A DNA stretch of 64,000 nt from Chloroflexota bacterium (GCA_050257635.1 JBLMXG010000023.1:82983-146982); one strand, 5' to 3'. Positions 3,664 through 62,119 are shown, counted from the stretch's first letter. Translations and numbers: made by a program. Notes: a model not told the origin generated them from the letters alone.

Positions 3664-4473
3664 ATGGCGACACCGAATTTTGTCGGCAAGTTTACCGCTA
3701 ACAATCCCGGCATTATGACGCTGCAGGGGACGAATCAATATATCGTCGGGAAAGAGACCGGCCTGGTGATCGACGTGGCCTTGAGCGCCGATTCCAACAT
3801 GGACGGCATTATCGAACAGGCCGAGGCCATGGGGGTCAAGAAGATCGACAAGATTCTGCTCACCCATATTCACAGCGACCACTGCGGCGGTGCGCTGGCG
3901 CTCAGAAAGCGCTGCGGCGCCAAGCTCGGCATTCACCGCTCGCGCAAGGGGTATCTGGGCGGGGAAGACTTTCAGTACGACGACAACGACCGGATCGCCT
4001 TCAGCGGCGGCGAACTACATGTGCTCCATACCCCGGGGCATGAGTCCGGCCACTGCTGTTTTTACGAAGGCGGCGACAAGGTTTTGTTCAGCGGCGACAA
4101 TATTCTCGGCTACGGGACAGCGGTGATTCATCCGCCCGACGGCAACATGACCGACTATATGAAAACCCTCGAACGCTTGCTCGGCTTCGACATCAGCTTG
4201 ATCCTGCCCGGTCACGGCCCGCTGATCGGCAAAGCCGAAGCGAAGATCCGCGAGTACATCCAACATCGTCTCGAGCGGGAGCAGCAGGTGCTCACCGCAA
4301 TGCGCGCCGGACGCCAGACCATCGGCGATATCACGCAGATGATCTACGTCGATGTGTCGGCGGCGCTGCAGCGGGTGGCGGAATTTTCCGTTCAGGCGCA
4401 TTTAGAGAAACTGATGCGCGAGGGGCGGGTGATGCGCGAGGGCAGCCGCTATCTGCTGACGAGCGACAATTGA
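3664..4473 (+). CDS. MBL-fold metallo-hydrolase with C-terminal winged-helix
   Basis: Carries the HxHxDH motif (THIHSDHCGG), a downstream HTPGHESGH, and a C-terminal LEKLMREGRV winged-helix-like tail. The start is uncertain: in-frame GTG 3556 would add a Tat-like TRREALATIG leader (see findings). Confidence 0.85.
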   Translation: MATPNFVGKFTANNPGIMTLQGTNQYIVGKETGLVIDVALSADSNMDGIIEQAEAMGVKKIDKILLTHIHSDHCGGALALRKRCGAKLGIHRSRKGYLGGEDFQYDDNDRIAFSGGELHVLHTPGHESGHCCFYEGGDKVLFSGDNILGYGTAVIHPPDGNMTDYMKTLERLLGFDISLILPGHGPLIGKAEAKIREYIQHRLEREQQVLTAMRAGRQTIGDITQMIYVDVSAALQRVAEFSVQAHLEKLMREGRVMREGSRYLLTSDN

Positions 4474-5846
4474 CGCGACCGCTTGCCCAAATCAAACGGC
4501 AGATCCATCGTTTCCTTTTCAATCTCTAAATCCAGCCAAGCGTCATTGGCGAGATCGATTAAACGGCCCGCCGGCGCCGCGCTGATCAGCAGCACGACCG
4601 TGCCGCGATTTTGCAGCAGCCAGCCGCGCTGGTCGCCACCGCTGGCGATCCATGGGGCATTTTTGGGCGCGGGCGAAAAATTGAAACGGATAGCGTGGCG
4701 ATGCTCGAGGACCGCACGATAGGCTTGTAAAAATTCTCGGGCTTGATTTTCCGTCGACCACGAGCTGAACCACGCCGTCGTCAGGTTGGCGCCGTCGCGA
4801 AATGCGAAGAGCCGGTCGCCGCGCCATCCCGAGGCGGTCGCGTCGGCAGATTTTTCAGGGTGGGCGCTTGCCAGCGAAGCGGCGACGGCGTCTTCGCCCA
4901 AGGATTGTTCCAAATTCGGGATTTCTTTGTAGCGGCGCAGCAATGCCGCGGGAAAATAGCGCAGCGGCGCAGCGTGCTGAAGGAAGTATTTTTCCGGATG
5001 GAGAATCTCCGCCGTGGAGACCGGCGGGTTGACATAAAGAGCGTTGACGCCCGGCCAACCCCGCGCTTTGTAGGCCCAGTAGATGAACTGGCTGCCGGCC
5101 CGGTAGGGGAGGGTCAATTGCCGGCGCATATAACCGGGTAACGCCGCCGCCAGCTTATCGACTTCCGCGGCGATTTGGGCGGAGGCCGTGAGAATCGCCG
5201 CTGACGAAGTCGTCTTGCTCGAAACCAGGGAGATCGCCGCGAGTGCCGCATCGCCGCCGGTGAGAGCGTAAAACGCGGCGCGACGGTCTTCGCTCGCCAT
5301 CGAACGGATGCGCTCGCGCCAGTTGAACTGTTGTTCTTGCAGCGCCAAGGCGATGCCCAAGGCAACAGGCAGCTCGCGCGCCGCGCGCGGATTGGCCCTT
5401 TCAAGCGGCGCGCCAAGTCTAGCCGCGCCGGGGGCGAGGCTCAAGGTGGCGGTCGCGCTGTTATAATCGATCAGCCGCAGGATATGCCGATACTCGCCCC
5501 ATGCTTTGCCAAGTTGCGCATCATTGGCTAACAGGCCGACGCTTTTGTAAGCGCGTTCGAGATCGGGAATCGGCACCGGACTCGAAAACGCGCTCTCCAA
5601 GCTTGCGGCGCCGTTGATCTCTTTCCGATTGAGTCGAATTTCTTTGGCGACCGGTAAGCCGCGCGATTGCGCGAGCGCTTGGACGAGATCCCGAAAAGCG
5701 CTCACCGAGGGCATCGGAACGGCTGAGGATTCCGGCGAAAAACAGCCTGGGAGCGCGATTGTCAGAAGAATCAGCAGCAAAAGACCGCGATCGGGTCGGA
5801 AGCGCAGCGGCGCGACGGCAATTTTTAACCGATTCGGCTCATCCAC
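4449..5846 (-). CDS. hypothetical lipoprotein (465 aa)
   Basis: Long ORF with protein-like composition and an N-terminal LLLILLTIALPGC lipobox. No family recognised. Its start abuts the rlpA stop (5846/5847). Confidence 0.7.
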   Translation of the reverse strand: MDEPNRLKIAVAPLRFRPDRGLLLLILLTIALPGCFSPESSAVPMPSVSAFRDLVQALAQSRGLPVAKEIRLNRKEINGAASLESAFSSPVPIPDLERAYKSVGLLANDAQLGKAWGEYRHILRLIDYNSATATLSLAPGAARLGAPLERANPRAARELPVALGIALALQEQQFNWRERIRSMASEDRRAAFYALTGGDAALAAISLVSSKTTSSAAILTASAQIAAEVDKLAAALPGYMRRQLTLPYRAGSQFIYWAYKARGWPGVNALYVNPPVSTAEILHPEKYFLQHAAPLRYFPAALLRRYKEIPNLEQSLGEDAVAASLASAHPEKSADATASGWRGDRLFAFRDGANLTTAWFSSWSTENQAREFLQAYRAVLEHRHAIRFNFSPAPKNAPWIASGGDQRGWLLQNRGTVVLLISAAPAGRLIDLANDAWLDLEIEKETMDLPFDLGKRSRQLSLVSR

Positions 5847-6548
5847 CTACTGCTCCATGATGATGACCGAATAGCCGGCCTGGGATATTTGCCGCGCTCG
5901 CTCTTCGGCGTCGAAGCGGCTGGAAAATTTTCCCAATTGCACCCGGTAGAAGGTGGCATCTTTGGACTGTAGCGGCGCGATCATAACGTCACCGTAGGAC
6001 TTCGCCAGACGATCGCGCAGCTGTTGTGCGTTTTCCAATCGCGCGAAAGAACCTAGCTGGAGCGTGTAGTCGAGGGAATCCCGAATGGTTTGAATTCTCA
6101 TCGGACTGTCGATCACATCGACGCGAACCAAGGCCGTGCCTGGTCCGACCATCTCGAGCAGTTGCGCCGCCGAGTAGGAGAGATCGATGATGCGTCCCTT
6201 GGCGAACGGGCCGCGATCGTTGATCGTAACTTCTGTGCTGCGGCCGTTTTCGAGGTTGGTGACCATGACTCGGGTACCGAGCGGCAGGGTTTGGTGCGCC
6301 GCGGTCAGATCGTTCTGATTATAAACATCGCCGCTGGCGGTGGCTTTGCCGTGGAAGCCTGGGCCATACCAGGAAGCGATGCCGGTCTGGCTTAGCGGCG
6401 TGGCCGGCCGCTCCGGGACACGGACCCTGCTCGGCGGGATCGAACAGCCGGCAGCGAGAAGAAGCAAGAAAAGTAGCGCCGCGTTCTTAAGACGCGCCGG
6501 TATGCTAAAGCCGAGGGCTGTTGAAATTAGCGGTAGTGCGCCGCTCAT
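5847..6548 (-). CDS. rlpA: septal ring lytic transglycosylase RlpA family lipoprotein with C-terminal SPOR domain
   Basis: DPBB motif: ASWYGPGFHGKATASGDVYNQNDLTAAHQTLPLGTRVMVTNLENGRSTEVTINDRGPF. Has an LLLLAAGC lipobox and a SPOR-like C-terminus (YTLQLGSF...YRVQLGKF). Confidence 0.93.
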   Translation of the reverse strand: MSGALPLISTALGFSIPARLKNAALLFLLLLAAGCSIPPSRVRVPERPATPLSQTGIASWYGPGFHGKATASGDVYNQNDLTAAHQTLPLGTRVMVTNLENGRSTEVTINDRGPFAKGRIIDLSYSAAQLLEMVGPGTALVRVDVIDSPMRIQTIRDSLDYTLQLGSFARLENAQQLRDRLAKSYGDVMIAPLQSKDATFYRVQLGKFSSRFDAEERARQISQAGYSVIIMEQ

Positions 6549-8752: not shown

Positions 8753-9808
8753 TTGCGCCGAATTCGGGCCGAGCTGGTTCTCATGCTGAGCGGCAACAAA
8801 ACCGAAGACGATCTAACCTACGAAATCAACCTTCGTCCGCGCGCCTTCGACGAATACGTCGGCCAGGAGCAGGTCAAGGCCAACCTCAAAGTCGCGATCG
8901 CAGCGGCGCGCAAACGCGGGGACGTGCTCGACCATCTGTTGTTTCACGGCCCGCCGGGGCTTGGGAAAACTTCGCTGGCATACATCATTGCGCGTGAAAT
9001 GGGCGTTAACATTAGGGCTACTTCAGGTCCGGTGGTGGAGCGTCCGGGCGACCTGGCGGCGCTGCTGACCAATCTCGAAGAAGGAGATATTCTTTTTATC
9101 GACGAGATTCATCGCCTGAACCATGTCGTCGAGGAAGTGCTCTATCCGGCGATGGAGGACTACCAGATCGATATCATGATCGGCCAGGGGCCGGCGGCGC
9201 GCTCCATCAAACTGGATCTCAAGCGGTTCACTTTGATTGGAGCCACCACCCGCTCCGGGTTGTTGACTTCCCCGTTGCGCGATCGCTTCGGCCATATTCA
9301 CCGTTTGGATTTTTACGACAGTGCGGCGTTGTCACTGATCCTCAAGCGCTCGGCCGCGATTCTCGGAGTGCGCGAGCAAAACGACGGCATCGCCGAGATT
9401 GCCTCGCGCTCGCGGGGCACGCCGCGCATCGCCAATCGATTGTTGCGCCGCGTGCGCGACTATGCCCAGGTCAAAGGAGACGGTACGATCACCAAGGCGG
9501 TGACCGACGAAGCGCTGCGGTTGCTAGAAGTCGATCGACTCGGCTTGGACAAGATGGATACAATGTTACTGCTCACCCTGATCGACAAGTTCGCCGGCGG
9601 ACCGGTCGGGGTAGAAACACTGGCCGCGGCTATCGGCGAAGATAAGGATACCATCGAAGACGTTTACGAGCCGTTTCTTATTCAGGCCGGTTTTATTCAG
9701 CGGACGCCGCGCGGCCGGGTCGCCACGCGGCTGGCTTTCAATCACTTCGGGCGCGAGTTGAACAGTCCCGCGAGCAGCGTGGCAAGAAAGCAACCGACGC
9801 TCTTTTAG
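8753..9808 (+). CDS. ruvB: Holliday junction branch migration DNA helicase RuvB
   Basis: Walker [12 protein letters not shown], Walker [11 protein letters not shown], and [15 protein letters not shown]. The start could instead be ATG 8783. Confidence 0.96.
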
Positions 9809-9862
9809 TTGGGCCAAACAACCGAAACGATGGATATGCAATCAATCTAAAGCCGTAAATCG

Positions 9863-10075
9863 ATGGCCGGATTCGGCAAAATTTTTATTTACCTCGGATT
9901 ATTGCTGGTGGTCGTCGGAGTGATTTTTTCGTTCGCCGGCAAATTGCCCTGGCTCGGCCATTTGCCGGGGGATATTTCGATCCAGCGCGAGGGTTACTCT
10001 TTTTACTTTCCGATCACCACTTGCATCCTAATCAGCGCCATCATTTCGCTTGTTCTTTACTTCTTTAGAAGGTAA
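9863..10075 (+). CDS. DUF2905 family small membrane protein
   Basis: 70 aa with two TM segments and the LPGDI motif (KLPWLGHLPGDISIQREGYSFYFPITTCI). Typical position after ruvB. Confidence 0.85.
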   Translation: MAGFGKIFIYLGLLLVVVGVIFSFAGKLPWLGHLPGDISIQREGYSFYFPITTCILISAIISLVLYFFRR

Positions 10076-10116
10076 ACTTTTCCTTAATTTTCTAGCCTCT
10101 TAGCACAATAAAGCCG

Positions 10117-12348
10117 ATGCAAGTCGCGAATTCTGCTACGTTCGTCGAAGAAACTCTCAAACGGGAGGAAAGCAAGCGCCGCAAACGCGAAGCGATCGTC
10201 ATCCTAATTACCGCGTTGATGGTGGGCGCGCTCATCTACTTCGAAGTTCAGCTCCCCGACGTCTCGCCGGAATATTCTACCGGCAGCAACATCATCTTTT
10301 TCCTGTTGATCAACGTCAACATTATTCTTCTCGGGCTGCTGGTTTTCCTAGTCGTCCGCAATTTGATCAAGCTGGTGGTCGAACGCAAGCAGCGCATTCT
10401 CGGATCGCGCCTGCAAGTGCGTTTGGTCTTGGCTTTTGTGTCGCTCTCTCTGGTTCCAAGCGTCTTGTTGTTTGCCCTCGCCGGTGGCTTGTTGACCCGC
10501 TCCTTCGACCGTTGGTTCGATTCCAAGGTGGAAAGCGCGCTGCAGGGGTCGTTGGAAATCGGCCAGACCTACTATCAAAATTCGGCGAACAACGCGATTT
10601 TCTACGCCCGACAACTGAGCCGGCGAATTAGCGATGAGGGGCTCCTCGAAACCCGCCGCGCAGCGGAGCTCAAAGCGTTCGTTCAAGCCAAACAGCGCGA
10701 ATACAATCTCGGTACAGTCGAAGTGTTCGCGCCCGACGGGCAGGCTTTCGTGGCCGCGTTCAACCGGCAGGTGCCGACCGGCATGGTCATCAAGCCGGAG
10801 GGTGAATTTCTCAACCGGGCGCTGCGAGGCCTGGAAGTGACGCGCACCGAAGTTTTTGGCGACGGCGACGTCATCCGGGGCGGTGTGCCGCTCTACGACC
10901 GTGATCGACGAATTCGCGGCGTGGTGGTGGTGGACTACTATGTGCCGAAGAGCATTTCCAAGCGCGCGGTGCAGATCTCGCAATCTTACGAGCAATACAA
11001 GTATCTTACCTTTCTCAAGACGCCGGTGAAAAATAGCTACATCTTGACCATGCTGTTGATCACCCTGGTGATTATTTTTGCGGCGACCTGGTGCGGTATC
11101 TATCTTTCCAAGGGAATTACCGTGCCGATCCAAAAGCTTGCCGAGGGCACCCATGAAGTCGCGCAGGGCAACTGGGACTACCGGATCGAGTCGGGCCGCG
11201 ACGACGAAATCGGCGTGCTGATGAATGCGTTCAACCAGATGACCGGGGATCTGAAGCAAATCAAGCTGGAGCTCGAGCGGCGCGGCACGGTGGTCGAGAC
11301 ACTGCTTGCCAACATCGCGGCGGGCGTTGTCTCAGTCGATCCGGCGGGCAAGATCACCACATGGAACAAAGCCGCCGAGCAAATTCTGGGAGTTCAAGCC
11401 GATCACGCATTGGGGAAAAGGTATCGCGAGGTTTTCCACGCCGAGACATTGCGCGAGATCCGCGAGATTCTCGACAGCGTGGTGGGACGCGGAAGCGTCG
11501 AAAGAGAAATTAAACTTTCGTTGCAAGATCGGTTGCTGACTCTTTTAGTGAGCGCGGCGACGCTGCGCGAAGACGACGGCTCGATCTTGGGCGTGATGTT
11601 GTTTCTCGACGACATCACTCAGATTCAAAAGGTGCAGCGCATGGAAGCCTGGCGCGAAGTTGCCCGGCGCATCGCCCACGAAATCAAGAATCCGCTGACG
11701 CCGATCCAGCTTTCGGCCGAGCGTCTCCGCAAACGCTACGCTAAAATGCTTGAAGGGGACGGCGCTGTCCTGGACAAATGCACGACAACGATCATCCAGC
11801 AGGTCGAAGAGCTCAAAAATCTCGTCAACGAATTTTCTCAGTTTGCGCGCTTGCCGTCGGCGCGATTGGCGTCGAACGATCTCAACGGCATTGTCCGGGA
11901 CGCTCTGGTTTTGTTTAAAGAAGGGCACCACGGCGTTCAGTTTCATTTCGGCGGCGGGCTGATCCCGCCGCTCGAATTGGACCGCGAACAGATCAAGCGC
12001 GTTTTGATCAATCTGCTGGACAATGCGGTGGCAGCGGTGGGGGGACAAGGCGAGGTCAAATTGGCGACGGCCTATGACCCGCAACGGGGCGTCGTTACCC
12101 TGGAAGTGGCCGACGATGGATGCGGCTTGCTCCCGGAGATTCGCACGAAAATTTTCGAGCCGTATTTTTCGACCAAGGAGAACGGCACGGGCCTAGGACT
12201 GACCATCGTCAGCCAGATCATTGAAGACCACCGGGGATATATCCGCGCCTGGCCCAACGAGCCTAGAGGGAGCCGCTTTATCATCGAACTGCCTGTGAGC
12301 GCAGACGCGGGCGTCGAAGAGACGGTCAAGAAGACCGCGCAGCTGTAA
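10117..12348 (+). CDS. ntrY: NtrY-type sensor histidine kinase (TM-HAMP-PAS-HisKA-HATPase)
   Basis: N-terminal TM bundle, HAMP (DDEIGVLMNAFNQMT), PAS (TTWNKAAEQILG), H-box AHEIKNPLTPIQLSAERLRKRY (the NtrY signature), N-box LLDNAV, and G-box DDGCG...GTGLGL. Confidence 0.92.
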   Translation: MQVANSATFVEETLKREESKRRKREAIVILITALMVGALIYFEVQLPDVSPEYSTGSNIIFFLLINVNIILLGLLVFLVVRNLIKLVVERKQRILGSRLQVRLVLAFVSLSLVPSVLLFALAGGLLTRSFDRWFDSKVESALQGSLEIGQTYYQNSANNAIFYARQLSRRISDEGLLETRRAAELKAFVQAKQREYNLGTVEVFAPDGQAFVAAFNRQVPTGMVIKPEGEFLNRALRGLEVTRTEVFGDGDVIRGGVPLYDRDRRIRGVVVVDYYVPKSISKRAVQISQSYEQYKYLTFLKTPVKNSYILTMLLITLVIIFAATWCGIYLSKGITVPIQKLAEGTHEVAQGNWDYRIESGRDDEIGVLMNAFNQMTGDLKQIKLELERRGTVVETLLANIAAGVVSVDPAGKITTWNKAAEQILGVQADHALGKRYREVFHAETLREIREILDSVVGRGSVEREIKLSLQDRLLTLLVSAATLREDDGSILGVMLFLDDITQIQKVQRMEAWREVARRIAHEIKNPLTPIQLSAERLRKRYAKMLEGDGAVLDKCTTTIIQQVEELKNLVNEFSQFARLPSARLASNDLNGIVRDALVLFKEGHHGVQFHFGGGLIPPLELDREQIKRVLINLLDNAVAAVGGQGEVKLATAYDPQRGVVTLEVADDGCGLLPEIRTKIFEPYFSTKENGTGLGLTIVSQIIEDHRGYIRAWPNEPRGSRFIIELPVSADAGVEETVKKTAQL

Positions 12349-12369
12349 GCGGATTGTCGAGGAGGGTTA

Positions 12370-13668
12370 GTGGAAGAGTTGGTCATGCAAAAGACGATTT
12401 TGGTCGTTGATGACGAAGACGGCGTGCGAGAGTCGGTGCGCGAGGTCTTGACCGATGAAGGTTACCGAGTCGTCGACACCGCCGATGGCACTCGAGTGCT
12501 CGAGATGATCAAGGAAGAGAAGCCGGAGCTGGTTCTTCTCGATATTTGGATGCCTCAGGTCGACGGCATCGGTCTGTTGAAAGAGATTAAATCCGAAGAG
12601 CCGGAGATCAACGTCGTGATGGTGTCCGGACACGGCAACATTCACACGGCGGTAACCGCCACCAAATTCGGTGCTTTCGACTTCATCGAAAAACCAGTTT
12701 CCCTTGAAGGGCTCCTGCTCACGGTGCAGCGTGCGCTCGGAGACATGCCGGGAGCGTCGCTGCAAAAAATACCGTCTGCCGGCAACCGAAGAGGACGGTC
12801 GCTCAAGGTGATGGCGCCGAAGAACGACGCAGTTTCGCATTCAGTCAGACAGAAGACCTTGAAAAAAAGCGTCGTTCTGTCGGGGCAAGGGCTTCATTCG
12901 GGAATTAAAACCGGATTGATTCTGCACCCGCTGCCGGCCCATCGCGGCATCTTGTTTACGGGAATTTCCGGCGACGTGACGCTGCCGGCGCACCTCGACT
13001 ACGTCGGCTCGACAGGTTACGCGACCTCGTTGCGATCTAAGGGTTTTGCGGTGGGGACGGTGGAGCATTTTCTCGCCGTAGTGCACAGTTACGGGATCAC
13101 GAATTTGCTCGTCAAGGTCCAAGGCGAGCTGCCGATCATGGATGGCTCGGCGCTAGAGTTTTGTCAGGCGATCGAAGAAGCCGGTATCGAAGAGCAAGCC
13201 GAAGAGTGTTCCGAGATCGTGATCGACCGGCTCTACCAAATCCAAGCGAAGAACGGCGAGTCGATCAGCATCGCGCCGGCGGAAACGCTCTCTGTGCATT
13301 ACCGGTTGCGTTACCCGGAACCGGTGGGCCAACAGGAGCACACTTACCAGTACCAGGGGCCGGGTTTTTTCAAAACGGAAATCGCTCCAGCGCGCACTTT
13401 TGGTTTCATACGCGATATCGAAAAGCTCCAAACCATGGGGCTAGCCGGCGGCGGTAAGCTCAACAACTGCATCATCATCGGCGACGATAAGATCATCAAT
13501 ACCGATTTACGCTTCGCTAATGAGTTCGCACGCCACAAGATATTGGATATTCTCGGCGATTTTTATTTGCTCGGTCGACCGATTCGCGGCGCCATTTCGG
13601 CTTGTATGACCGGCCACTCGGACAACATCGCGTTGCTCAAGCAGATTCGCAGCGGCATGGATTTATAA
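12370..13668 (+). CDS. lpxC: response-regulator receiver domain fused to UDP-3-O-acyl-N-acetylglucosamine deacetylase (REC-LpxC)
   Basis: Residues 1-125 form a CheY-like REC domain (VVDDED, LLDIWMP, MVSGHG, GAFDFIEKP). After a linker of about 45 aa, a full LpxC follows: KTLKKSVVLSGQGLHSG, TVEHFL, IMDGSA, ARTFGF, FARHKILDILGDFYLLG, TGHSDN. One uninterrupted ORF; GGAGGG lies just upstream. ATG 12385 is an alternative start. Confidence 0.9.
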   Translation: MEELVMQKTILVVDDEDGVRESVREVLTDEGYRVVDTADGTRVLEMIKEEKPELVLLDIWMPQVDGIGLLKEIKSEEPEINVVMVSGHGNIHTAVTATKFGAFDFIEKPVSLEGLLLTVQRALGDMPGASLQKIPSAGNRRGRSLKVMAPKNDAVSHSVRQKTLKKSVVLSGQGLHSGIKTGLILHPLPAHRGILFTGISGDVTLPAHLDYVGSTGYATSLRSKGFAVGTVEHFLAVVHSYGITNLLVKVQGELPIMDGSALEFCQAIEEAGIEEQAEECSEIVIDRLYQIQAKNGESISIAPAETLSVHYRLRYPEPVGQQEHTYQYQGPGFFKTEIAPARTFGFIRDIEKLQTMGLAGGGKLNNCIIIGDDKIINTDLRFANEFARHKILDILGDFYLLGRPIRGAISACMTGHSDNIALLKQIRSGMDL

Positions 13669-13728
13669 AGGTATCCGAGCGAACACGAACGGCGCGAATT
13701 AGAGATTCACCGGACGACGCATTTATTC

Positions 13729-14178
13729 ATGAGCTCTTCGGATCATTACGCGCGACTTTTTACCGTCAACGAGGCCAATGCGCTGTTGCCCCAGCTGCGC
13801 CCGCTGGTCGAGCAGATCCTCGAAAATATTCGGCGCTTGAAACGCGCCAGCGAAACGACGATCCGCAGAGAAAATCTCGATCCCGAGGCGCCCAACCTCA
13901 TGAACCGACTGCGCGAGGACGGCGAGATCGCTAAACTCATCGGACAGATCACCGGCTGGGTTGATGAAATCAACGCCTATGGCTGTATGTGCAAAGGCGT
14001 TGAGCAGGGACTGGTCGATTTTCCCTGTATGCTCGGCACCGAGGTGGTTTTTTTGTGCTGGCAGATTGGCGAGCCGACGGTGAGTCACTGGCACCGCATT
14101 GAAGACGGCTTTGCCGGGCGGAAACCCTTGCTTGATGGCGAAGGTTCCGATCCCGACGATAACATCTCCTATCATTGA
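13729..14178 (+). CDS. DUF2203 domain-containing protein
   Basis: FTVNEANALLPQLRPLV N-terminus and GLVDFPCMLGTEVVFLCWQIGEPTVSHWHRIEDGFAGRKPL C-terminus, both typical of DUF2203. Confidence 0.8.
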   Translation: MSSSDHYARLFTVNEANALLPQLRPLVEQILENIRRLKRASETTIRRENLDPEAPNLMNRLREDGEIAKLIGQITGWVDEINAYGCMCKGVEQGLVDFPCMLGTEVVFLCWQIGEPTVSHWHRIEDGFAGRKPLLDGEGSDPDDNISYH

Positions 14179-14265
14179 TTTCGCTTCCGGCCTTTTGGCC
14201 ATGGCGAGGTCGGCGCTGCGATTCCGACCTGCACCTGACGAAAGTGTTGAGCTTTAGGTTTTAGG

Positions 14266-15441
14266 ATGAAGCCTTCTTCAGAGCGGAACGTTGGCGTCTT
14301 AACTCAACAAATTAAGGAAGCATCCCGAGGGCTAGGCTTTGATCTGGTCGGCATCTCGGCGGTGCAGCTGCCGCCGCATGAAACTTCCTTCGCGCGCTGG
14401 CTGCGCGAGGGGCTTGCGGGCGAGCTGGATTACATGAAGCGGACCGAGCTCCTTCGGCGCGATCCCAAGAGCCTGGTGCCCTGGGCCACTTCGGTCGTTT
14501 CGGTTGGGATGAATTATTACACGCCCTGGCCGCGTCCCGATCCCGCCGGCGGATCGAGCGGTTGGATCTCACGCTACGCCTGGGGAGATGACTATCACGG
14601 ATTGATGAAGTGCAGGCTCGATGCATTGCTCGATCGTGTATCGGAATTGTCTGGCGGCCCGGTGCAAGGTCGCGCGTTCGTCGATTCCGGGCCGGTTCTG
14701 GAACGGGATATGGCCGGCGTCGGGGGGCTGGGCTGGATTGGCAAAAATACGCATCTTATTTCGCCGCGGCGCGGCTCGTGGTTTTTTTTGGGCGAATTGT
14801 TTCTCGACTTACGGCTCGCCTACGATCGCCCGATCCGCGATCGCTGCGGCCGCTGCGAACTTTGCCTGAAGGCCTGTCCGACCGGGGCGTTTATCGGCCC
14901 CTACCTGCTCGACGCGCGCCGTTGCATTTCCTATCTCACCATCGAATTGAAGGGCTGGATCCCGTCTTATCTCCGGCCGATGATCGGCAATCATATTTTC
15001 GGCTGCGATATCTGCCAGGAAGTTTGCCCGTACAACGTAAAAGCGCGAGCCAGCGCCGAAGCGGCGTTCCGGCCGAGGACCGGTTTGCATGCGCCCGAAT
15101 TGATCGGACTTTTGGCCCTTACCCAGGATGAATTTCGCCGTCGTTTTCGCGGCAGTCCGATTCTTCGTGCGAAAAGGCGCGGCCTGCTGCGCAATGTTGC
15201 GGTAGCTCTCGGCAATCTCAAGTGCGCAGAAGCCGAGCCGGCGCTGGTTCGGGCGCTCGATGACGACGAGCCTTTAGTGCGCGGCCACGTAGCTTGGGCG
15301 CTCGGACAAATTGGACTGGGCTCAACGCTGGCAGCGCTCCGACGGCGATTGCGAGTTGATACCGACAGCGAGGTTAAAGCTGAGATTAGCGGCGCGATCG
15401 GAATGATAACCGCGAGGTTGGGCGATAGCTCGCCGACTTAG
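14266..15441 (+). CDS. queG: tRNA epoxyqueuosine(34) reductase QueG
   Basis: Two 4Fe-4S motifs (CGRCELCLKACP, CDICQEVCPYN), GLGWIGKNT, and C-terminal HEAT-like repeats (DDEPLVRGHVAWALG). Confidence 0.93.
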   Translation: MKPSSERNVGVLTQQIKEASRGLGFDLVGISAVQLPPHETSFARWLREGLAGELDYMKRTELLRRDPKSLVPWATSVVSVGMNYYTPWPRPDPAGGSSGWISRYAWGDDYHGLMKCRLDALLDRVSELSGGPVQGRAFVDSGPVLERDMAGVGGLGWIGKNTHLISPRRGSWFFLGELFLDLRLAYDRPIRDRCGRCELCLKACPTGAFIGPYLLDARRCISYLTIELKGWIPSYLRPMIGNHIFGCDICQEVCPYNVKARASAEAAFRPRTGLHAPELIGLLALTQDEFRRRFRGSPILRAKRRGLLRNVAVALGNLKCAEAEPALVRALDDDEPLVRGHVAWALGQIGLGSTLAALRRRLRVDTDSEVKAEISGAIGMITARLGDSSPT

Positions 15442-29075: not shown

Positions 29076-29085
29076 GTTGAAGCCC

Positions 29086-31683
29086 ATGGAAGAGCGCTAT
29101 CAAGCCAAAGCCATCGAAGAGAAGTGGCAACGGATCTGGGCGACAGAGCAATCGTTTGATGTTCGCGAGGACGCGTCGAAGCCAAAGTACTATGTTTTGG
29201 AAATGTTTCCTTATCCGTCGGGGCGTATCCACATGGGCCACGTGCGCAACTATTCCATCGGCGACGTGGTGGCGCGCTATAAGCGCATGCGCGGCTTTAA
29301 TGTGCTGCATCCCATGGGGTGGGACGCCTTCGGTTTGCCGGCCGAGAACGCCGCGATCGAGCGCGGCGTTCATCCGCAAGCCTGGACCGAAGAAAATATT
29401 CTATACATGAAAACCCAGCTCAAGCGCATGGGTCTTTCCTACGACTGGGGGCGCGAGGTGGCAACCTGCCACCCCGAATATTACCGGTGGAATCAATGGA
29501 TCTTCCTGCAATTTTTCAAGAAGGGATTGGCGTACAAGAAAAATTCATATGTCAACTGGTGTCCCTCCTGTGAGACGGTCCTGGCCAACGAGCAGGTGGT
29601 TGACGGTGCCTGTTGGCGCTGCGACTCCGCAGTCGTTCAAAAGGAGCTCGAGCAGTGGTTCTTGAGGATCACCGACTACGCCGAGGAACTACGCCAGGAT
29701 TTGGACAAACTCAGCGGCTGGCCCGACAAAGTGGTCACCATGCAGCGCAACTGGATCGGCAAATCGGTCGGCGCCGAAATCGAATTTCCTCTGCCGGAAC
29801 ATGACGATGCTTTGCGAATCTTCACCACTAGACCGGACACAATCTTCGGCGCCACCTTTGTCTCCCTAGCGGTGGAGCATCCCCTCGCGCTCACCTTGGC
29901 AGGCGGCACCGCGCAACGCCACGCGGTCGAAGAATTTATCAACCGGTTTAAAAAAATCAGCCAGGCCAAGCGCGGCGAGGAGGAAACCGAGAAAGAGGGT
30001 GTTTTTACCGGCGCCTACTGCCGCAATCCGTTTACCGGAGAAAATATTCCGATATACTTGGCAAATTTTGTTTTGATGGAATACGGCACCGGCGCCGTAA
30101 TGGCAGTGCCCGCTCACGATCAGCGCGATTTCGAATTCGCCAAGAAATACGGTTTGCCGATCCGTGTCGTGATTCAGCCTAACGACCGATTCCTGAGTGC
30201 TGAATCTTTGGCGGAAGCCTACGTCGATGAGGGCACGATGGTCGAGAGCGGCGCATTCTCCGGCTTGCCCAACACCGACGGCAAGGAAAGAATCACCGCC
30301 TATGCCGTAGCGCAAAGGTGGGGCAAAAAGGCGATTCGCTATCGCCTGCGCGACTGGGGAATTTCGCGCCAGCGCTATTGGGGTACGCCGATCCCCATAA
30401 TTTACTGCGATCGCTGCGGCACGGTGGCCGTACCGGAAACCGACTTGCCGGTGGAGCTTCCGAAGGACGTCCCGTTCAGCGGCAAGGGCGGTTCGCCGCT
30501 GCGCGAGAGCAAATTCTTTGCTCAAGTGACATGTCCGAAGTGCGGCGGTGCTGCCCGGCGCGAGACCGATACCATGGACACCTTTGTTGATTCCTCGTGG
30601 TATTTTCTCCGTTATACTTCGGCCGGTTTTAAACAAGCGCCGTTCGATGCCGACAAGGCGCGCTATTGGATGGCCGTGGACCAGTATATCGGCGGTGTCG
30701 AACACGCCGTGTTGCATTTGCTTTACGCGCGTTTTTTTACCAAGGCGCTGCGTGATTTGGGGCTGGCCAAAGTCGACGAGCCTTTTGCCAATCTTCTTAC
30801 GCAGGGCATGGTGTCCAAGGAGACCTATCGCTGCGAGAATCATGGCTGGCTATTCCCAGGCGATCTTGTCGGCTCGGAAAAAGACGGCTGGCGCTGCGCC
30901 GAGTGCAGCCGCTCGGTGACCGTAGGCCGAGTCGAAAAAATGTCCAAGTCGAAGAAAAACATCATCGATCCCGAAGAGCTTATCAGCCGCTACGGGGCCG
31001 ACACGGCGCGGCTGTTTACTCTCTTCGCGGCCCCACCGGAAAAGGATCTGGAGTGGAGCGATCAAGGCGTCGAGGGCGCTTACCGGTTTTTGTCTCGGCT
31101 CTGGCGCTTGATCTACCAGCAGCGCAGCCTGTGGACGCAGACTCAGCGGGCCGAGGGTGCCACGGAGCTATCCAGCGAAATGCGCGAGCTGCGCCGGGCA
31201 ATTCACCGAACCATCAAAAAAGTCTCCGACGACATCGACGGACGATTTCACTTCAATACCGCGATCGCGGCGATCATGGAGCTGTTCAACGTGTTAAGCG
31301 CGGCTGCACAGGGCGATCTACAATCGAATGCCGCCAGCGGCGTTATCAAAGAAGGAACGGAAGCGATCATTGTCTTGCTCGCGCCGTTCGTGCCTCACGT
31401 CGCCAATGAGATTTGGGAAATACTGGGTCACGACGACCATTTAAATGAGGTTCGCTGGCCAAGTTTTTCCCAAGAAGCCATCGAGGAAGAAAAGCTACTG
31501 ATCGTGGTTCAGGTCAATGGAAAAGTTCGCGGCAAGATTACGGTTCCGGCCGATGTAACACAGGAGTATATTGAAACCAATGCCCTTGCCGACCCAAGAG
31601 TCCTCGCTTTCATCGATGGCAAGAGCGTCCGACGCGTGGTTTATGTGCCGCGCCGTTTAGTGAATATCGTTGTGGAGGGCTGA
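29086..31683 (+). CDS. leuS: leucine--tRNA ligase
   Basis: HIGH motif ([15 protein letters not shown]), KMSKS motif ([10 protein letters not shown]), and the CP1 editing domain. ATG 29086; the ORF opens at TTG 29077. Confidence 0.97.
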
Positions 31684-31687
31684 AACC

Positions 31688-32302
31688 ATGCATGGGAACC
31701 GACTTCGGTATTACGGTTGGAAGGATGTGAGCGTCGCCTTATCGTTGTTGGCGGCTTTCGGTGGTTGTGGCTACCAATTCACCGGAGAGAGTTCGCTCCT
31801 ACCCAAGGATGCCCGGACGATTTATGTCGAGCCCTTCGTTAATCGCAGCCGCGATGTCGGCATGGACAAGGAACTGACATCGGCATTGCGTGGTGAGTTC
31901 TACCGCCGCGGGCAGCTCAATGTTGTCGAGCAGTCCGAGCGGGCGGATCTGATTCTGAGCGGAGTGATTCGATCGCTCGATCAAAACGTCGCTTCGGTCA
32001 ACCGAAAAGACGAGGTGCTGCAGTACGAATCCGTGCTCATCTTGGATGTCACTTTACGACGGCGAGAGCCCAACGAAATTTTGTGGCGAGGCCAGGGAGT
32101 GCGCCTGAGCGACGTGCACGGTGGCTCACGCGCGGCTGTGGTCACAACCTCGTCGGATTTCCTCACAGGAACTTTGAACGCGTCGGACGTACGCCGAATG
32201 ACCGATATACAGCTGACCGAAATCGAACGCAGGGCCGTGCGTGACCAGCTGATGGAGCGCTTTGCAAAAGAACTCCACCAACGGGTGATGGAAATGTTTT
32301 GA
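31688..32302 (+). CDS. lptE: LPS-assembly lipoprotein LptE
   Basis: Conserved position directly after leuS. Lipobox AAFGGCGYQF, the typical LptE N-terminus. About 205 aa. Confidence 0.8.
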   Translation: MHGNRLRYYGWKDVSVALSLLAAFGGCGYQFTGESSLLPKDARTIYVEPFVNRSRDVGMDKELTSALRGEFYRRGQLNVVEQSERADLILSGVIRSLDQNVASVNRKDEVLQYESVLILDVTLRRREPNEILWRGQGVRLSDVHGGSRAAVVTTSSDFLTGTLNASDVRRMTDIQLTEIERRAVRDQLMERFAKELHQRVMEMF

Positions 32303-59869: not shown

Positions 59870-62119
59870 CTACTGTTTGGAAAATTCGCGGAAACTGTTG
59901 GCGAAGGAGGTCGTCAGGGAGAAATCTTTGACCATCGCCTTGGCGAACCGCCAGGGCCGGATCTGCCACAGCTTCAGCCGGCGCAGATTGAGCAGAGTCT
60001 GCGACCAGACGCGCTGCAACTCCTGGCGCGAATAGACAACGCGGTTATTGATGGCGTCGAACTTGATCAGGCTGAGCTGGGCTCTTGACGGCAGGCTGCC
60101 GCGCAGCCTGGTATAGGCCTCTTGCCATTCTTGGATGCGGTCGCCCAGGCGAACGTTGGCCTGTATATGGTGGATCTCGTCCAGCAAGCGGCGCGCCGCT
60201 TCGTTTTCCTTCGGTCGGAGCTCCTGAATTTTTTCCTTCAGGTTGTCCCACTGCCGCAAAAAGCGGTTGAGGTCGTTGCGGTTGTAAACCACCCGCGATG
60301 AAAGATCTTCCAGCGGTTCGAGCAGGGCGCGCGCCCGCTCCGGCAGATTTTCCTTTGCGCTGTTATAGAGTCGTTGAATCTCGCCGATTCTTAATGCTTG
60401 CCAAATATCGGCCTGCAACTTTTGAATCTGTTCGAGCCAACGCTCCTCGCCCTCGCTTTTCTTACGGGTTTGCAGCCAGACCTCTTCCATCTCCTTGACG
60501 AACTGCGCCCAGGTGATCAGCAGCTTGGTGACTTCCTTGGTGCGCTTCCACAGATGCACCGGGATAGAATCGACGGTGTAGCCGGGCCGCCGCGCCTTGC
60601 GGTCTTTGAGCCGGAAGAATCCCGCCACCATCGGATGCTGTTTTTCGATCAAGGCGGCGTTCTTGTACCAGAAGAAGATCGACATCAAGTTCCAATAATT
60701 CTTCGGCCGTTCCGCCCAGCGAGAAAGATTCCGAATCATGTTTTCCTTGCTGTAGAACGATTTCCAGGCGTTCTCGTAAGCCTCGGTCCATTCATCGGCG
60801 CTCATCAGCGGATGCTTGATCGTCGCGTGGAAGGAGTCGCGCTTGTTGAAATCCGGATCCATCCAATCGCCGCGCTTTTTCATCTCGCGGTGATCGTGGG
60901 AGCCGGGCAGCGGAGTCAGCATGAAAAAAGATGCCTGGTCGGGACCGACTTCTTCCATCAAAAAACGCACATCGGCAGCGACCTGCTCTTTGGAATCCCA
61001 GGGCAGGCCGATGATATACCCGGTGTGCACCAGCACGCCGGCGTCGTGCCATTCCTTGATGATGCTGCGGTACTCTTCGACTTTGTTCTGCTTCTTGCCT
61101 TCGGCTTCGAGGTTTTGCGGGTTGACGCTCTCCATGCCAATGAAGACCTGGGTGCAGCCGGCGCGGGCGGCAAGGGGGACAAATTCTTTGGGTTTCTTTG
61201 CCAAATCGACCTGCATCATGAAGGAAACGTCGAGACCTTCTTCGCGCAGCTTGATGATCTCTTCGAAAGTTTCGCGCCAAAGTTTCTTGCGCGCGAAATT
61301 GTCGTCGGTGAAAAAGTAAAAAGACAGGCCGTGATCGAGATAGTTCCGGCGCATCATCGCGGCAATGCTCTGCGGGCTGCGCTCGCGCATTTTCCGTCCC
61401 TGTACGTTGATGATCGTACAGAAGCTGCACGCAAACGGACAGCCGCGGGAGGTATCGGCGGTGGCGAAGCTCGGGTAGGCGAAATGCTTCATCGTTTTGG
61501 CGCTGGCTTTCGGAAGCGGCGCTTCTTCGATATCGACCAGGTTTTGCAAATCCTGGGCAAAGCTATAAAGAGACTTCAGTCGGCCGTGCAGATAGTCCGA
61601 CAAGATGCCTTCCCACTTGCCCTCGACCTCCCCGGAGACCATGCAGATGCCTTCCCGGTAGAGTTCCTGAATGTCCGGTTCCTGGTCGCCGAGCATGTTG
61701 ATCGTGCCGCTGGTGTGAAAGCCGCCCATGATCACCGTGATGCCTGCGGCCTTGAAGATGCGCGCCATGTCCAGCGCACGGGGAAATTGGTTGGTCTGGA
61801 CGCCAACCAGACAAACAAGCAGCTTGGTGCCGGGCGCTTTGCTCCAGCGAATGATCCGCTTGAGCGGTACCTTCTCGGCGGTTTCATCGAAGGTGGTAAC
61901 TTCGATCGGCAGCGCGCCGAACACTCCCCGCGCCTTGATGTCTTCGGTGAGGCCGTGCAGGACGTTGAGTGTGTTACTCGGCAGGACGCCTTTCCAGAAG
62001 CGAATCACGTAACCGTCATCGTCGTACTTCGACGGCTTGATCAAGACGATGTGAAAATTATTGATTTGATCGAGCATGGGATCCGTCACCTCCCCAGTGC
62101 TTGTAAGTTCGCGCGGCAT
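59870..62119 (-). CDS. B12-binding domain-containing radical SAM protein with long repeat-containing C-terminal extension (749 aa)
   Basis: N-terminal cobalamin-binding-like Rossmann region (LVCLVGVQTNQF...VIMGGFH). Radical SAM cluster motif TSRGCPFACSFC. The C-terminal ~200 aa are helical with two ~75-aa internal repeats. The start could be ATG 62077. Confidence 0.88.
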   Translation of the reverse strand: MPRELTSTGEVTDPMLDQINNFHIVLIKPSKYDDDGYVIRFWKGVLPSNTLNVLHGLTEDIKARGVFGALPIEVTTFDETAEKVPLKRIIRWSKAPGTKLLVCLVGVQTNQFPRALDMARIFKAAGITVIMGGFHTSGTINMLGDQEPDIQELYREGICMVSGEVEGKWEGILSDYLHGRLKSLYSFAQDLQNLVDIEEAPLPKASAKTMKHFAYPSFATADTSRGCPFACSFCTIINVQGRKMRERSPQSIAAMMRRNYLDHGLSFYFFTDDNFARKKLWRETFEEIIKLREEGLDVSFMMQVDLAKKPKEFVPLAARAGCTQVFIGMESVNPQNLEAEGKKQNKVEEYRSIIKEWHDAGVLVHTGYIIGLPWDSKEQVAADVRFLMEEVGPDQASFFMLTPLPGSHDHREMKKRGDWMDPDFNKRDSFHATIKHPLMSADEWTEAYENAWKSFYSKENMIRNLSRWAERPKNYWNLMSIFFWYKNAALIEKQHPMVAGFFRLKDRKARRPGYTVDSIPVHLWKRTKEVTKLLITWAQFVKEMEEVWLQTRKKSEGEERWLEQIQKLQADIWQALRIGEIQRLYNSAKENLPERARALLEPLEDLSSRVVYNRNDLNRFLRQWDNLKEKIQELRPKENEAARRLLDEIHHIQANVRLGDRIQEWQEAYTRLRGSLPSRAQLSLIKFDAINNRVVYSRQELQRVWSQTLLNLRRLKLWQIRPWRFAKAMVKDFSLTTSFANSFREFSKQ

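Follow-up and report, generated by a model that had tools for sequence, protein, structure and literature searches.

Can the enzyme that commits a cell to lipid A synthesis be governed directly by a two-component system? LpxC is this enzyme, and either an excess or a shortage of it is lethal. The question is raised by a locus in a 64,000-nucleotide stretch of DNA from a Chloroflexota bacterium (GCA_050257635.1, JBLMXG010000023.1:82983-146982; hereafter, the window), in which a gene for an NtrY-type sensor histidine kinase is followed by a gene that encodes a receiver (REC) domain fused to LpxC. The explanation considered here is that the receiver is derived from NtrX, is the partner of the adjacent kinase, and would place LpxC under control by phosphorylation. 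As a whole, this explanation could equally well prove right or wrong, and its parts are held with different strengths. The features concerned are as follows.

10117-12348, + strand: NtrY-type sensor histidine kinase, 743 amino acids (Pfam domains)
12349-12369, + strand: intergenic spacer of 21 nucleotides between the kinase stop and the fusion start (from the sequence)
12370-13668, + strand: REC-LpxC fusion gene, 432 amino acids, GTG start, TAA stop
12391-12741, + strand: receiver (REC) domain, NtrX-like, residues 8-124 (PF00072)
12742-12843, + strand: interdomain linker, disordered, residues 125-158 (predicted local distance difference test, pLDDT; ratio of nonsynonymous to synonymous substitution rates, dN/dS)
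12844-13665, + strand: LpxC (UDP-3-O-acyl-GlcNAc deacetylase) domain, residues 159-432 (PF03331, TIGR00325)

A receiver domain and LpxC in one reading frame

The fusion gene is a single unbroken frame that places receiver, linker, and LpxC in one chain, as an earlier, sequence-only reading of the window had described it. Pfam detects Response_reg at residues 10-119 and LpxC at residues 161-426 of the same protein, so both of the domains expected by that reading are found above their cutoffs. A Shine-Dalgarno sequence, AGGAGG, lies at 12360-12365 within the spacer.

A homologue search of about 5.8 billion proteins returned more than 120 clusters of related proteins. The 120 clusters listed are 76-92% identical to the window protein and 415-449 amino acids long, all contain PF00072 and PF03331, and their named sources are mostly Candidatus Binatia. 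A scan of species-representative genomes found 17 loci with fusions of 64-87% identity.

Since the REC-LpxC junction recurs in all 120 listed clusters and in 17 genomes assembled independently, read data are not needed to exclude a missed stop or frameshift at the junction, about which the sequence-only reading had been cautious. It might still be supposed that REC and LpxC are two genes merged by an error of sequencing, assembly, or annotation. However, the continuous frame is the same in assemblies from different projects, and split versions were encountered only where a contig ends or is riddled with frameshifts. The clusters, the loci, their synteny, and the conserved frame together rule out such an artefact, to which we assign next to no probability. 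The gene thus has the architecture NtrX-like REC, linker, and LpxC, an assignment about which there is virtually no doubt.

The sequence-only reading treated the locus as a single case. It is instead one member of a large family that spans several phyla and whose members have been deposited as routine "LpxC" or "NtrX" proteins.

The upstream kinase and conserved gene order

The product of the upstream gene has the domain order NtrY_N (the membrane region), HAMP, PAS, HisKA, and HATPase_c, each above its Pfam cutoff (for NtrY_N, 35.4 against 23.2), and its H-box is AHEIKNPLTPIQLSAERL. These domains, this H-box, and the 21-nucleotide spacer agree with the claim that an NtrY-type kinase lies directly upstream. 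No NtrY model is present among the best 25 NCBIfam matches listed for the window proteins, and orthology to characterised NtrY proteins therefore rests on the architecture of the kinase and on the NtrX-like REC domain of its partner. No other response regulator is encoded in the window operon. The kinase shares 39% identity over its full 740 residues with the kinase of locus L026, which precedes a gene with a helix-turn-helix (HTH) domain between receiver and enzyme (REC-HTH-LpxC), and this full-length similarity makes it appear that kinase and fusion were inherited together.

A scan of positions 9700-14400 for promoters and terminators found nothing between the kinase and fusion genes, and the numbers of candidate sites were at the level of shuffled sequence. 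Because the spacer has no promoter- or terminator-like site, the two genes are probably co-transcribed.

Among the 17 loci, the order ruvC-ruvA-ruvB-DUF2905-kinase-fusion-DUF2203-queG is found wherever the contig is long enough, and a kinase orthologue is immediately 5' of the fusion in every Binatia-type locus whose contig reaches upstream. The reading frame and a GTG or TTG start are kept in 13 orthologous loci. Two further genes adjoin the pair:

9863-10075, + strand: DUF2905 small membrane protein, 70 amino acids (PF11146, 84.7 bits), directly upstream of the kinase
13729-14178, + strand: DUF2203 protein, 149 amino acids (PF09969, 121 bits), 60 nucleotides downstream of the fusion

The DUF2905 gene keeps its position in most Binatia-type loci that reach that far (L001-L007, L009, L011-L013, and L015), and the DUF2203 gene is syntenic in all related loci that do so. 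Both may be part of the same operon as the kinase and the fusion.

Five loci (L005, L008, L014, L015, and L017) carry Binatia-type fusions of 70-83% identity under the names of Verrucomicrobiia, Limnocylindrales, Opitutaceae, or Syntrophobacter metagenome-assembled genomes (MAGs). Most of these loci also carry the flanking synteny, and they are probably mis-binned contigs or have outdated taxon labels.

The REC domain, the LpxC domain, and the linker

The PF00072 match to residues 10-119 scores 108.5 bits against a cutoff of 30.2. All of the receiver residues named by the sequence-only reading are present, namely D14 and D15 (VVDDED), the phospho-acceptor D58 (LLDIWMP; codon at 12541-12543), S86 (MVSGHG), and K108 (IEKP), so the description of a complete CheY-like receiver holds. 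The aromatic switch residue F105 is also present. D14, D15, D58, S86, and K108 are invariant in 14 orthologues, as are the key residues of LpxC. Within a set of 120 sequences, the acidic pair is kept in 119, and the D58 motif, as well as F105 with the KP motif, in all 120; conservation of S86 was assessed in alignments of 14 sequences, 39 representatives, and 40 sequences. The best NCBIfam match of the REC domain is to NtrX (NF051870, 133.8 bits, model positions 3-120 of 452), and in the PDB it is closest to the Brucella NtrX receiver (4d6x/5m7n).

The LpxC domain matches positions 1-266 of the 268 in PF03331 (residues 161-426) with 270.2 bits against a cutoff of 27, and it exceeds the cutoff of the lpxC equivalog TIGR00325 (239 against 187.25 bits; NCBIfam). 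Its motifs include E232-H233 (TVEH), T343-F344 (ARTFGF), H389-K390, D393, and D397 (RHKILDILGD), and H416 (TGHS). Of these residues, H233, H389, and D393 are the predicted zinc ligands, E232 and H416 are predicted to be catalytic, and T343, F344, K390, and D397 would serve as helpers; all line up with the matching motifs of Pseudomonas aeruginosa LpxC (5u39). An AlphaFold2 model superposes at residues 158-429 on Aquifex aeolicus LpxC with a template-modelling (TM) score of 0.95 and a root-mean-square deviation of 1.5-1.6 A, which supports the two-domain LpxC fold. The domain is of Aquifex size, aligning to A. aeolicus residues 4-264, and does not have the C-terminal tail of the enterobacterial enzymes. 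The earlier description of an Aquifex-sized LpxC with all zinc and catalytic residues kept is thus confirmed, and the domain is predicted to be catalytically competent. The organism makes lipopolysaccharide (LPS) and has machinery for its transport, and hence an LPS outer membrane, as is evident from another gene of the window:

31670-32302: lptE, following leuS in the canonical leuS-lptE arrangement (29077-32302)

Both domains are modelled confidently by AlphaFold2 from an alignment of 40 sequences (overall predicted TM score, pTM, 0.65), with a pLDDT of about 80-93 for REC, while residues 126-153 of the linker are below 50, at about 30, and are disordered. The linker had been estimated at about 45 amino acids, a value too high for the unstructured stretch, which comprises about 34 (residues 125-158). 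Pairwise dN/dS values of 0.04 for REC, 0.08 for LpxC, and 0.6-0.8 for the linker imply that both domains are under selection, and the linker is free to vary in sequence; for REC and LpxC, the ratios are indicative of strong purifying selection.

The linker is basic, sequence-variable, and rich in Ala, Lys, Gly, Ser, Pro, Thr, and Arg. Its length in 118 Binatia-type proteins is 32-40 amino acids and its net charge +1 to +9 (median, +6), whereas linkers in other REC-LpxC lineages are 20-65 amino acids long and neutral or acidic. By this comparison, the basic charge is a trait specific to the Binatia lineage, and the idea that a basic Ala/Lys/Pro-rich linker serves generally as a membrane or DNA tether, or is an HTH remnant, was rejected as a general explanation. 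No similarity between the linker and the HTH of REC-HTH-LpxC proteins was seen by eye. AT-hook-like RKGRP strings occur in some Binatia-type linkers.

The end of the LpxC domain just past its catalytic core bears on one alternative to control of enzyme activity. The phosphorylation state of REC might gate recognition by a protease such as Lon, ClpXP, or FtsH, and so set the amount of LpxC rather than its activity; REC gating would then stand in for the FtsH/LapB degron system, which depends in enterobacteria on the tail that is missing here. RssB and CpdR are examples of receiver proteins with roles in regulated proteolysis, and the disordered linker could serve as a start site for degradation. 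The level of LpxC is also the usual point of its control, and lineages without the degron use other means (PMC12444477). Nevertheless, no protease or adaptor gene is linked to the fusion in the Binatia locus and no degron is identifiable in the sequence, and we consider this alternative unlikely.

A wider fusion family with probable NtrX ancestry

When 1.84 billion cluster representatives were searched exhaustively with HMMER and domains were then mapped, the nearest relatives of the window LpxC domain proved to be other fused proteins, not stand-alone LpxCs. Three architectures occur:

Type A, about 650-770 amino acids: REC-Sigma54_activat-AAA_lid-HTH_8-LpxC
Type B, 491-505 amino acids: REC-HTH_8-LpxC
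Type C, 412-461 amino acids: REC-linker-LpxC, the form of the window

Over the stretches of REC and LpxC that match, type A proteins are at most 59% identical to the window protein. They are found in Nitrospinota (Nitrospina, Nitrospinaceae, and Ca. Nitromaritima), Tectomicrobia, Schekmanbacteria, and Thermodesulfobacteriota, and many have been labelled "NtrX" by the Joint Genome Institute (JGI). Short REC-LpxC forms are present also in Spirochaetota, Desulfobulbales, and Nitrospirota.

The first approximately 445 amino acids of type A proteins match the NCBIfam NtrX model from end to end, and score higher with it than with NtrC or AtoC. The long relatives reach 344 and 245 bits with the NtrX model, which is under its equivalog cutoff of 600 bits. 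None of 132 long relatives has a GAFTGA-like motif, and 118 of the 132 are missing a recognisable Walker B, although Walker A is kept. The absence of GAFTGA and, mostly, of Walker B marks this AAA+ module as atypical and NtrX-like. The sequence-only reading called NtrX a sigma54 activator; this part of it must be corrected, because NtrX is an atypical enhancer-binding protein and not a classical sigma54 activator (PMC6158489).

According to Pfam, the window protein contains neither AAA+ nor HTH, and by domain content it is therefore not a sigma54 enhancer-binding protein. Nor is it an NtrX by the criterion of NF051870, since only its REC domain matches (133.8 against 600 bits). Judged by these comparisons, it derives from an NtrX-like ancestor but is not itself NtrX. 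The REC-AAA+-HTH-LpxC and REC-HTH-LpxC relatives suggest that the window REC is a true remnant of NtrX, and they, together with the NtrX-like character of the REC domain, bear out the earlier proposal that the fusion occupies the position of NtrX behind an NtrY-type kinase.

Clusters at 50% identity supplied 39 full-length representatives, in which conservation across all architectures was examined. The phospho-acceptor Asp is present in 37 of the 39, the Lys in 38, and the Ser or Thr in all, and each of the zinc and catalytic residues of LpxC is found in 38 or 39. By this measure, REC and LpxC are both predicted to remain functional throughout the family.

A neighbour-joining tree built from 105 LpxC domains separates the fused domains from more than 60 stand-alone LpxCs with a bootstrap value of 94/100, which becomes 68/100 when one very divergent short group is included. 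The closer association of the window protein and a Binatia representative is with types A and B, not with the short Spirochaetota and Desulfobulbales forms (72/100).

Four LpxC-only sequences (P0162, P0167, P0202, and P0225) fall within the fused clade, and would be of interest as signs of gene fission or of an unfused ancestor. Neither of the two that were checked is a true stand-alone LpxC: P0162 begins at one end of a contig of 902 bp, and the contig that encodes P0167 has frameshifted ruvB and kinase genes. Such an interpretation was accordingly rejected for these two. The source of the spurious P0167 is locus L022 (contig_25414 of ERZ25039586), which shows the same synteny as its relatives with ruvB, the kinase, and the REC part in fragments, and which looks like a long-read assembly with many frameshifts.

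These relationships can be arranged into a candidate history. An ancestral ntrY-ntrX unit would have gained lpxC, joined to the C terminus of NtrX to form REC-AAA+-HTH-LpxC. The AAA+ module, already without its sigma54-contact motif and mostly without Walker B, would have been lost next, and loss of the HTH would then have produced REC-linker-LpxC in the Binatia lineage of the window. Fusion followed by domain loss is the most economical history, loss probably took place more than once, and we regard an origin of the window protein from an NtrX::LpxC fusion by domain loss as quite probable.

In genomes with type A or B proteins, the fusion gene is followed by genes for a PurN-like formyltransferase and LolA (L020, 12418-15100; L026, 9594-10881; L031, 9154-12037; L030, 10503-11114). 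An RseP-type M50 protease gene comes after LolA in L020 and L031; LolA and RseP are envelope related. This block of PurN-like, LolA, and RseP genes is absent from the Binatia locus.

How the receiver might act on LpxC

Kinase genes are adjacent to the fusion in several other lineages. Two loci of a marine type B lineage (L026 and L027) have the order DUF4390-NtrY-fusion with a complete NtrY-type kinase, and a complete NtrY-type kinase is directly 5' of the type A fusion of Schekmanbacteria (L030). A type A contig from Nitrospinae (L019) includes, 5' of the fusion, no more of the kinase than a C-terminal fragment (HATPase_c).

In the proposed mechanism, NtrY would phosphorylate D58 of the fused REC domain. 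The alpha4-beta5-alpha5 face is the dimerisation surface of NtrC/NtrX-family receivers, and phosphorylation might alter this surface so as to change dimerisation or intramolecular (cis) contacts. Through the flexible tether, the resulting steric or oligomeric control would change the amount of LpxC activity that is available. We give such direct control of enzyme output by the kinase an even chance.

Several observations weigh against this explanation or one of its parts. The fusion has no adjacent kinase in six of the loci examined, so the pairing with NtrY is not universal: these are a type A fusion on a 3.25-Mb contig (L020), Tectomicrobia (L031), Spirochaetota-type chromosomes (L024 and L029), Desulforhopalus sp. 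52FAK (L028), and a further divergent lineage (L025). The AlphaFold2 model (pTM 0.65, linker pLDDT about 30) gives no confident packing of REC against LpxC. Consequently, occlusion of the active site as in CheB is not supported. LpxC is normally an active monomer, and the route from REC dimerisation to catalysis is not obvious. The nesting of the window protein within the long forms has moderate support (72/100), and the trees are neighbour-joining only. Finally, these genomes may carry a second, stand-alone lpxC; none was found in the 64-kb window or in the related 21-kb loci, which are a small part of each genome.

The limited coverage of each genome leaves room for the fused gene to be an accessory, condition-specific paralogue, with a stand-alone lpxC elsewhere in the genome performing the housekeeping function. 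However, the fused protein scores as an lpxC equivalog, with TIGR00325 above its cutoff. It also has housekeeping neighbours, which are ruvCAB in the window and, in other lineages, trmD, recN, or rpmE. Its conservation is strong, it is present on small, near-complete chromosomes of 1.8-2.7 Mb, and the stand-alone members of the fused clade that were checked (P0162 and P0167) proved to be products of truncation or frameshift. In addition, lpxC is single-copy in most LPS producers. The paralogue hypothesis is, for these reasons, improbable.

The loci that have no adjacent kinase favor a different alternative, in which the REC domain has little or no part in regulating the enzyme. It might instead serve to dock or localise LpxC at the membrane kinase, or act as a phosphate sink for NtrY, with LpxC constitutively active. 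The long flexible linker, whose sequence is free to vary, and the absence of predicted domain contact are consistent with this possibility, as is the suggestion that a LapB homologue localises LpxC to the inner membrane in Neisseria (PMC12444477). Yet the phosphorylation pocket and the switch residues S86, F105, and K108 are essentially invariant over several phyla, and the dN/dS of REC is below that of LpxC, features that are hard to reconcile with a passive tag. Moreover, REC and LpxC alone survived repeated domain loss. A passive receiver is thus also decidedly unlikely.

Direct phospho-control by NtrY can be extended to a broader proposal, which seems possible but rather doubtful. Binatia would have no LpxC other than the fused protein, and related forms of it would be the sole LpxC of Nitrospinota, Schekmanbacteria, Desulfobulbales, and Spirochaetota; NtrY would sense envelope or redox conditions and set lipid A synthesis through phosphorylation of REC; and control of LpxC would be an ancient core function of NtrYX. 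If this were true, these bacteria would possess a two-component feedback, independent of proteolysis, on the step that commits them to LPS synthesis. The series of fusions would also be a "Rosetta stone" that could explain the altered lpxC expression and LPS of alphaproteobacterial NtrYX mutants.

Relation to known systems

The NtrY/NtrX systems of Brucella, Rhodobacter, and Caulobacter resemble the window locus in the architecture of the kinase, in the order of kinase and then receiver, and in the REC domain, which is closest to NtrX. The long relatives match NtrX end to end and share its lack of GAFTGA. In contrast to NtrX, the window protein has an enzyme as its output and, with neither AAA+ nor HTH, cannot act as a transcription factor.

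Enzymes are well known as outputs of response regulators, examples being CheB, the GGDEF proteins PleD and WspR, and the HD-GYP protein RpfG. Like these and the REC-PP2C proteins, the fusion has an N-terminal receiver, a flexible linker, and a C-terminal catalytic domain, and the adjacent kinase is its putative cognate. By analogy, it plausibly works like them, with phosphorylation altering catalytic output. It differs from them in that no interface between REC and the catalytic domain is predicted (pTM 0.65) and in that its output is a biosynthetic zinc amidase of lipid A synthesis, not a signalling enzyme. LpxC would be a new output domain for response regulators, and its place in core biosynthesis makes it an unusual choice.

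Canonical LpxC is controlled in E. coli by FtsH/LapB(YciM)/PbgA proteolysis and in P. aeruginosa by MurA activation. The fused domain has the same enzyme fold and active-site residues as the E. coli and P. aeruginosa enzymes. Unlike canonical enterobacterial LpxC, it does not have the degron-bearing C-terminal tail, and the proposed control would be exerted by a fused receiver and a histidine kinase instead of by an adaptor and a protease.

Another natural fusion of LpxC is the LpxC/FabZ protein of the Bacteroidota type (NCBIfam NF009667), to which the LpxC part of the window protein matches with 207 bits. The cutoff of 465 is not reached, and the window protein has no FabZ part. Whereas LpxC/FabZ carries a metabolic partner at its C terminus, the window protein carries a signalling domain at its N terminus.

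A two-component system dedicated to lpxC has been reported in Desulfovibrio vulgaris, in which an NtrC-family regulator has lpxC as its sole target (DVU2931/DVU2934; PMC3333781). As judged from its description, this system belongs to the same broad bacterial group, is a precedent for histidine-kinase control of the committed step, and resembles the present one in its dedication to lpxC, but it acts at the level of transcription, and its regulator is encoded separately from lpxC. In Rhodobacter sphaeroides without NtrYX, lpxC mRNA is elevated 8.8-fold and LPS is increased, with no NtrX site at lpxC (PMC7240162). In both Rhodobacter and Caulobacter, NtrYX is reported to repress lpxC at the transcriptional level and to reduce LPS (PMC7240162, PMC12444477).

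A 2025 review of lipid A regulation lists as LpxC controls FtsH/LapB/PbgA proteolysis and possibly Lon in some Alphaproteobacteria, and the words "receiver" and "fusion" are absent from it (PMC12444477). Literature searches turned up no account of a REC-LpxC or NtrX-LpxC protein, in agreement with the sequence-only reading, to which no characterised example was known. The architecture is uncharacterised but widespread, and the proteins are already in public databases under routine names.

Other genes of the window

The remainder of the window is ordinary chromosomal housekeeping DNA of an LPS-making bacterium. It includes genes for aconitase, RlpA, YebC, RuvCAB, PlsX-FabD-FabG, SHMT, NrdR, and a riboflavin operon, as well as LeuRS followed by LptE, TatC, H+-pyrophosphatase, and FtsX. 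Three further features are as follows.

4449-5846, - strand: open reading frame of 465 amino acids, no Pfam match at E<=1e-4, adjoining the RlpA-like gene
5847-6548: RlpA-like lytic transglycosylase (DPBB and SPOR domains, from domain content)
59870-62119, - strand: radical-SAM protein, 749 amino acids, in which only the core radical-SAM domain is recognised

An RlpA-like gene is also near the fusion gene in L020 and L022.

Implications for the control of lipid A synthesis

The fusion predicts a fourth mode of LpxC control, direct control by a two-component system, in addition to proteolysis, MurA activation, and indirect transcriptional control. The hypothesis is testable, because the protein is small and standard assays exist for both of its domains. 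Complete genomes with related forms also are available, among them AP019861.1 of Spirochaetota and AP044854.1 of Desulforhopalus sp. 52FAK, the latter being an organism record and not a MAG.

The series REC-AAA+-HTH-LpxC, REC-HTH-LpxC, and REC-LpxC is a clear example of a transcription factor reduced to an enzyme that would be controlled by signalling. The family also provides an independent genomic indication that NtrYX-type signalling and LpxC belong together. This link fits the unexplained rise of lpxC mRNA and LPS in Rhodobacter NtrYX mutants, and the repression of lpxC in Caulobacter. It suggests that some bacteria control the committed step in making lipid A by direct signalling.

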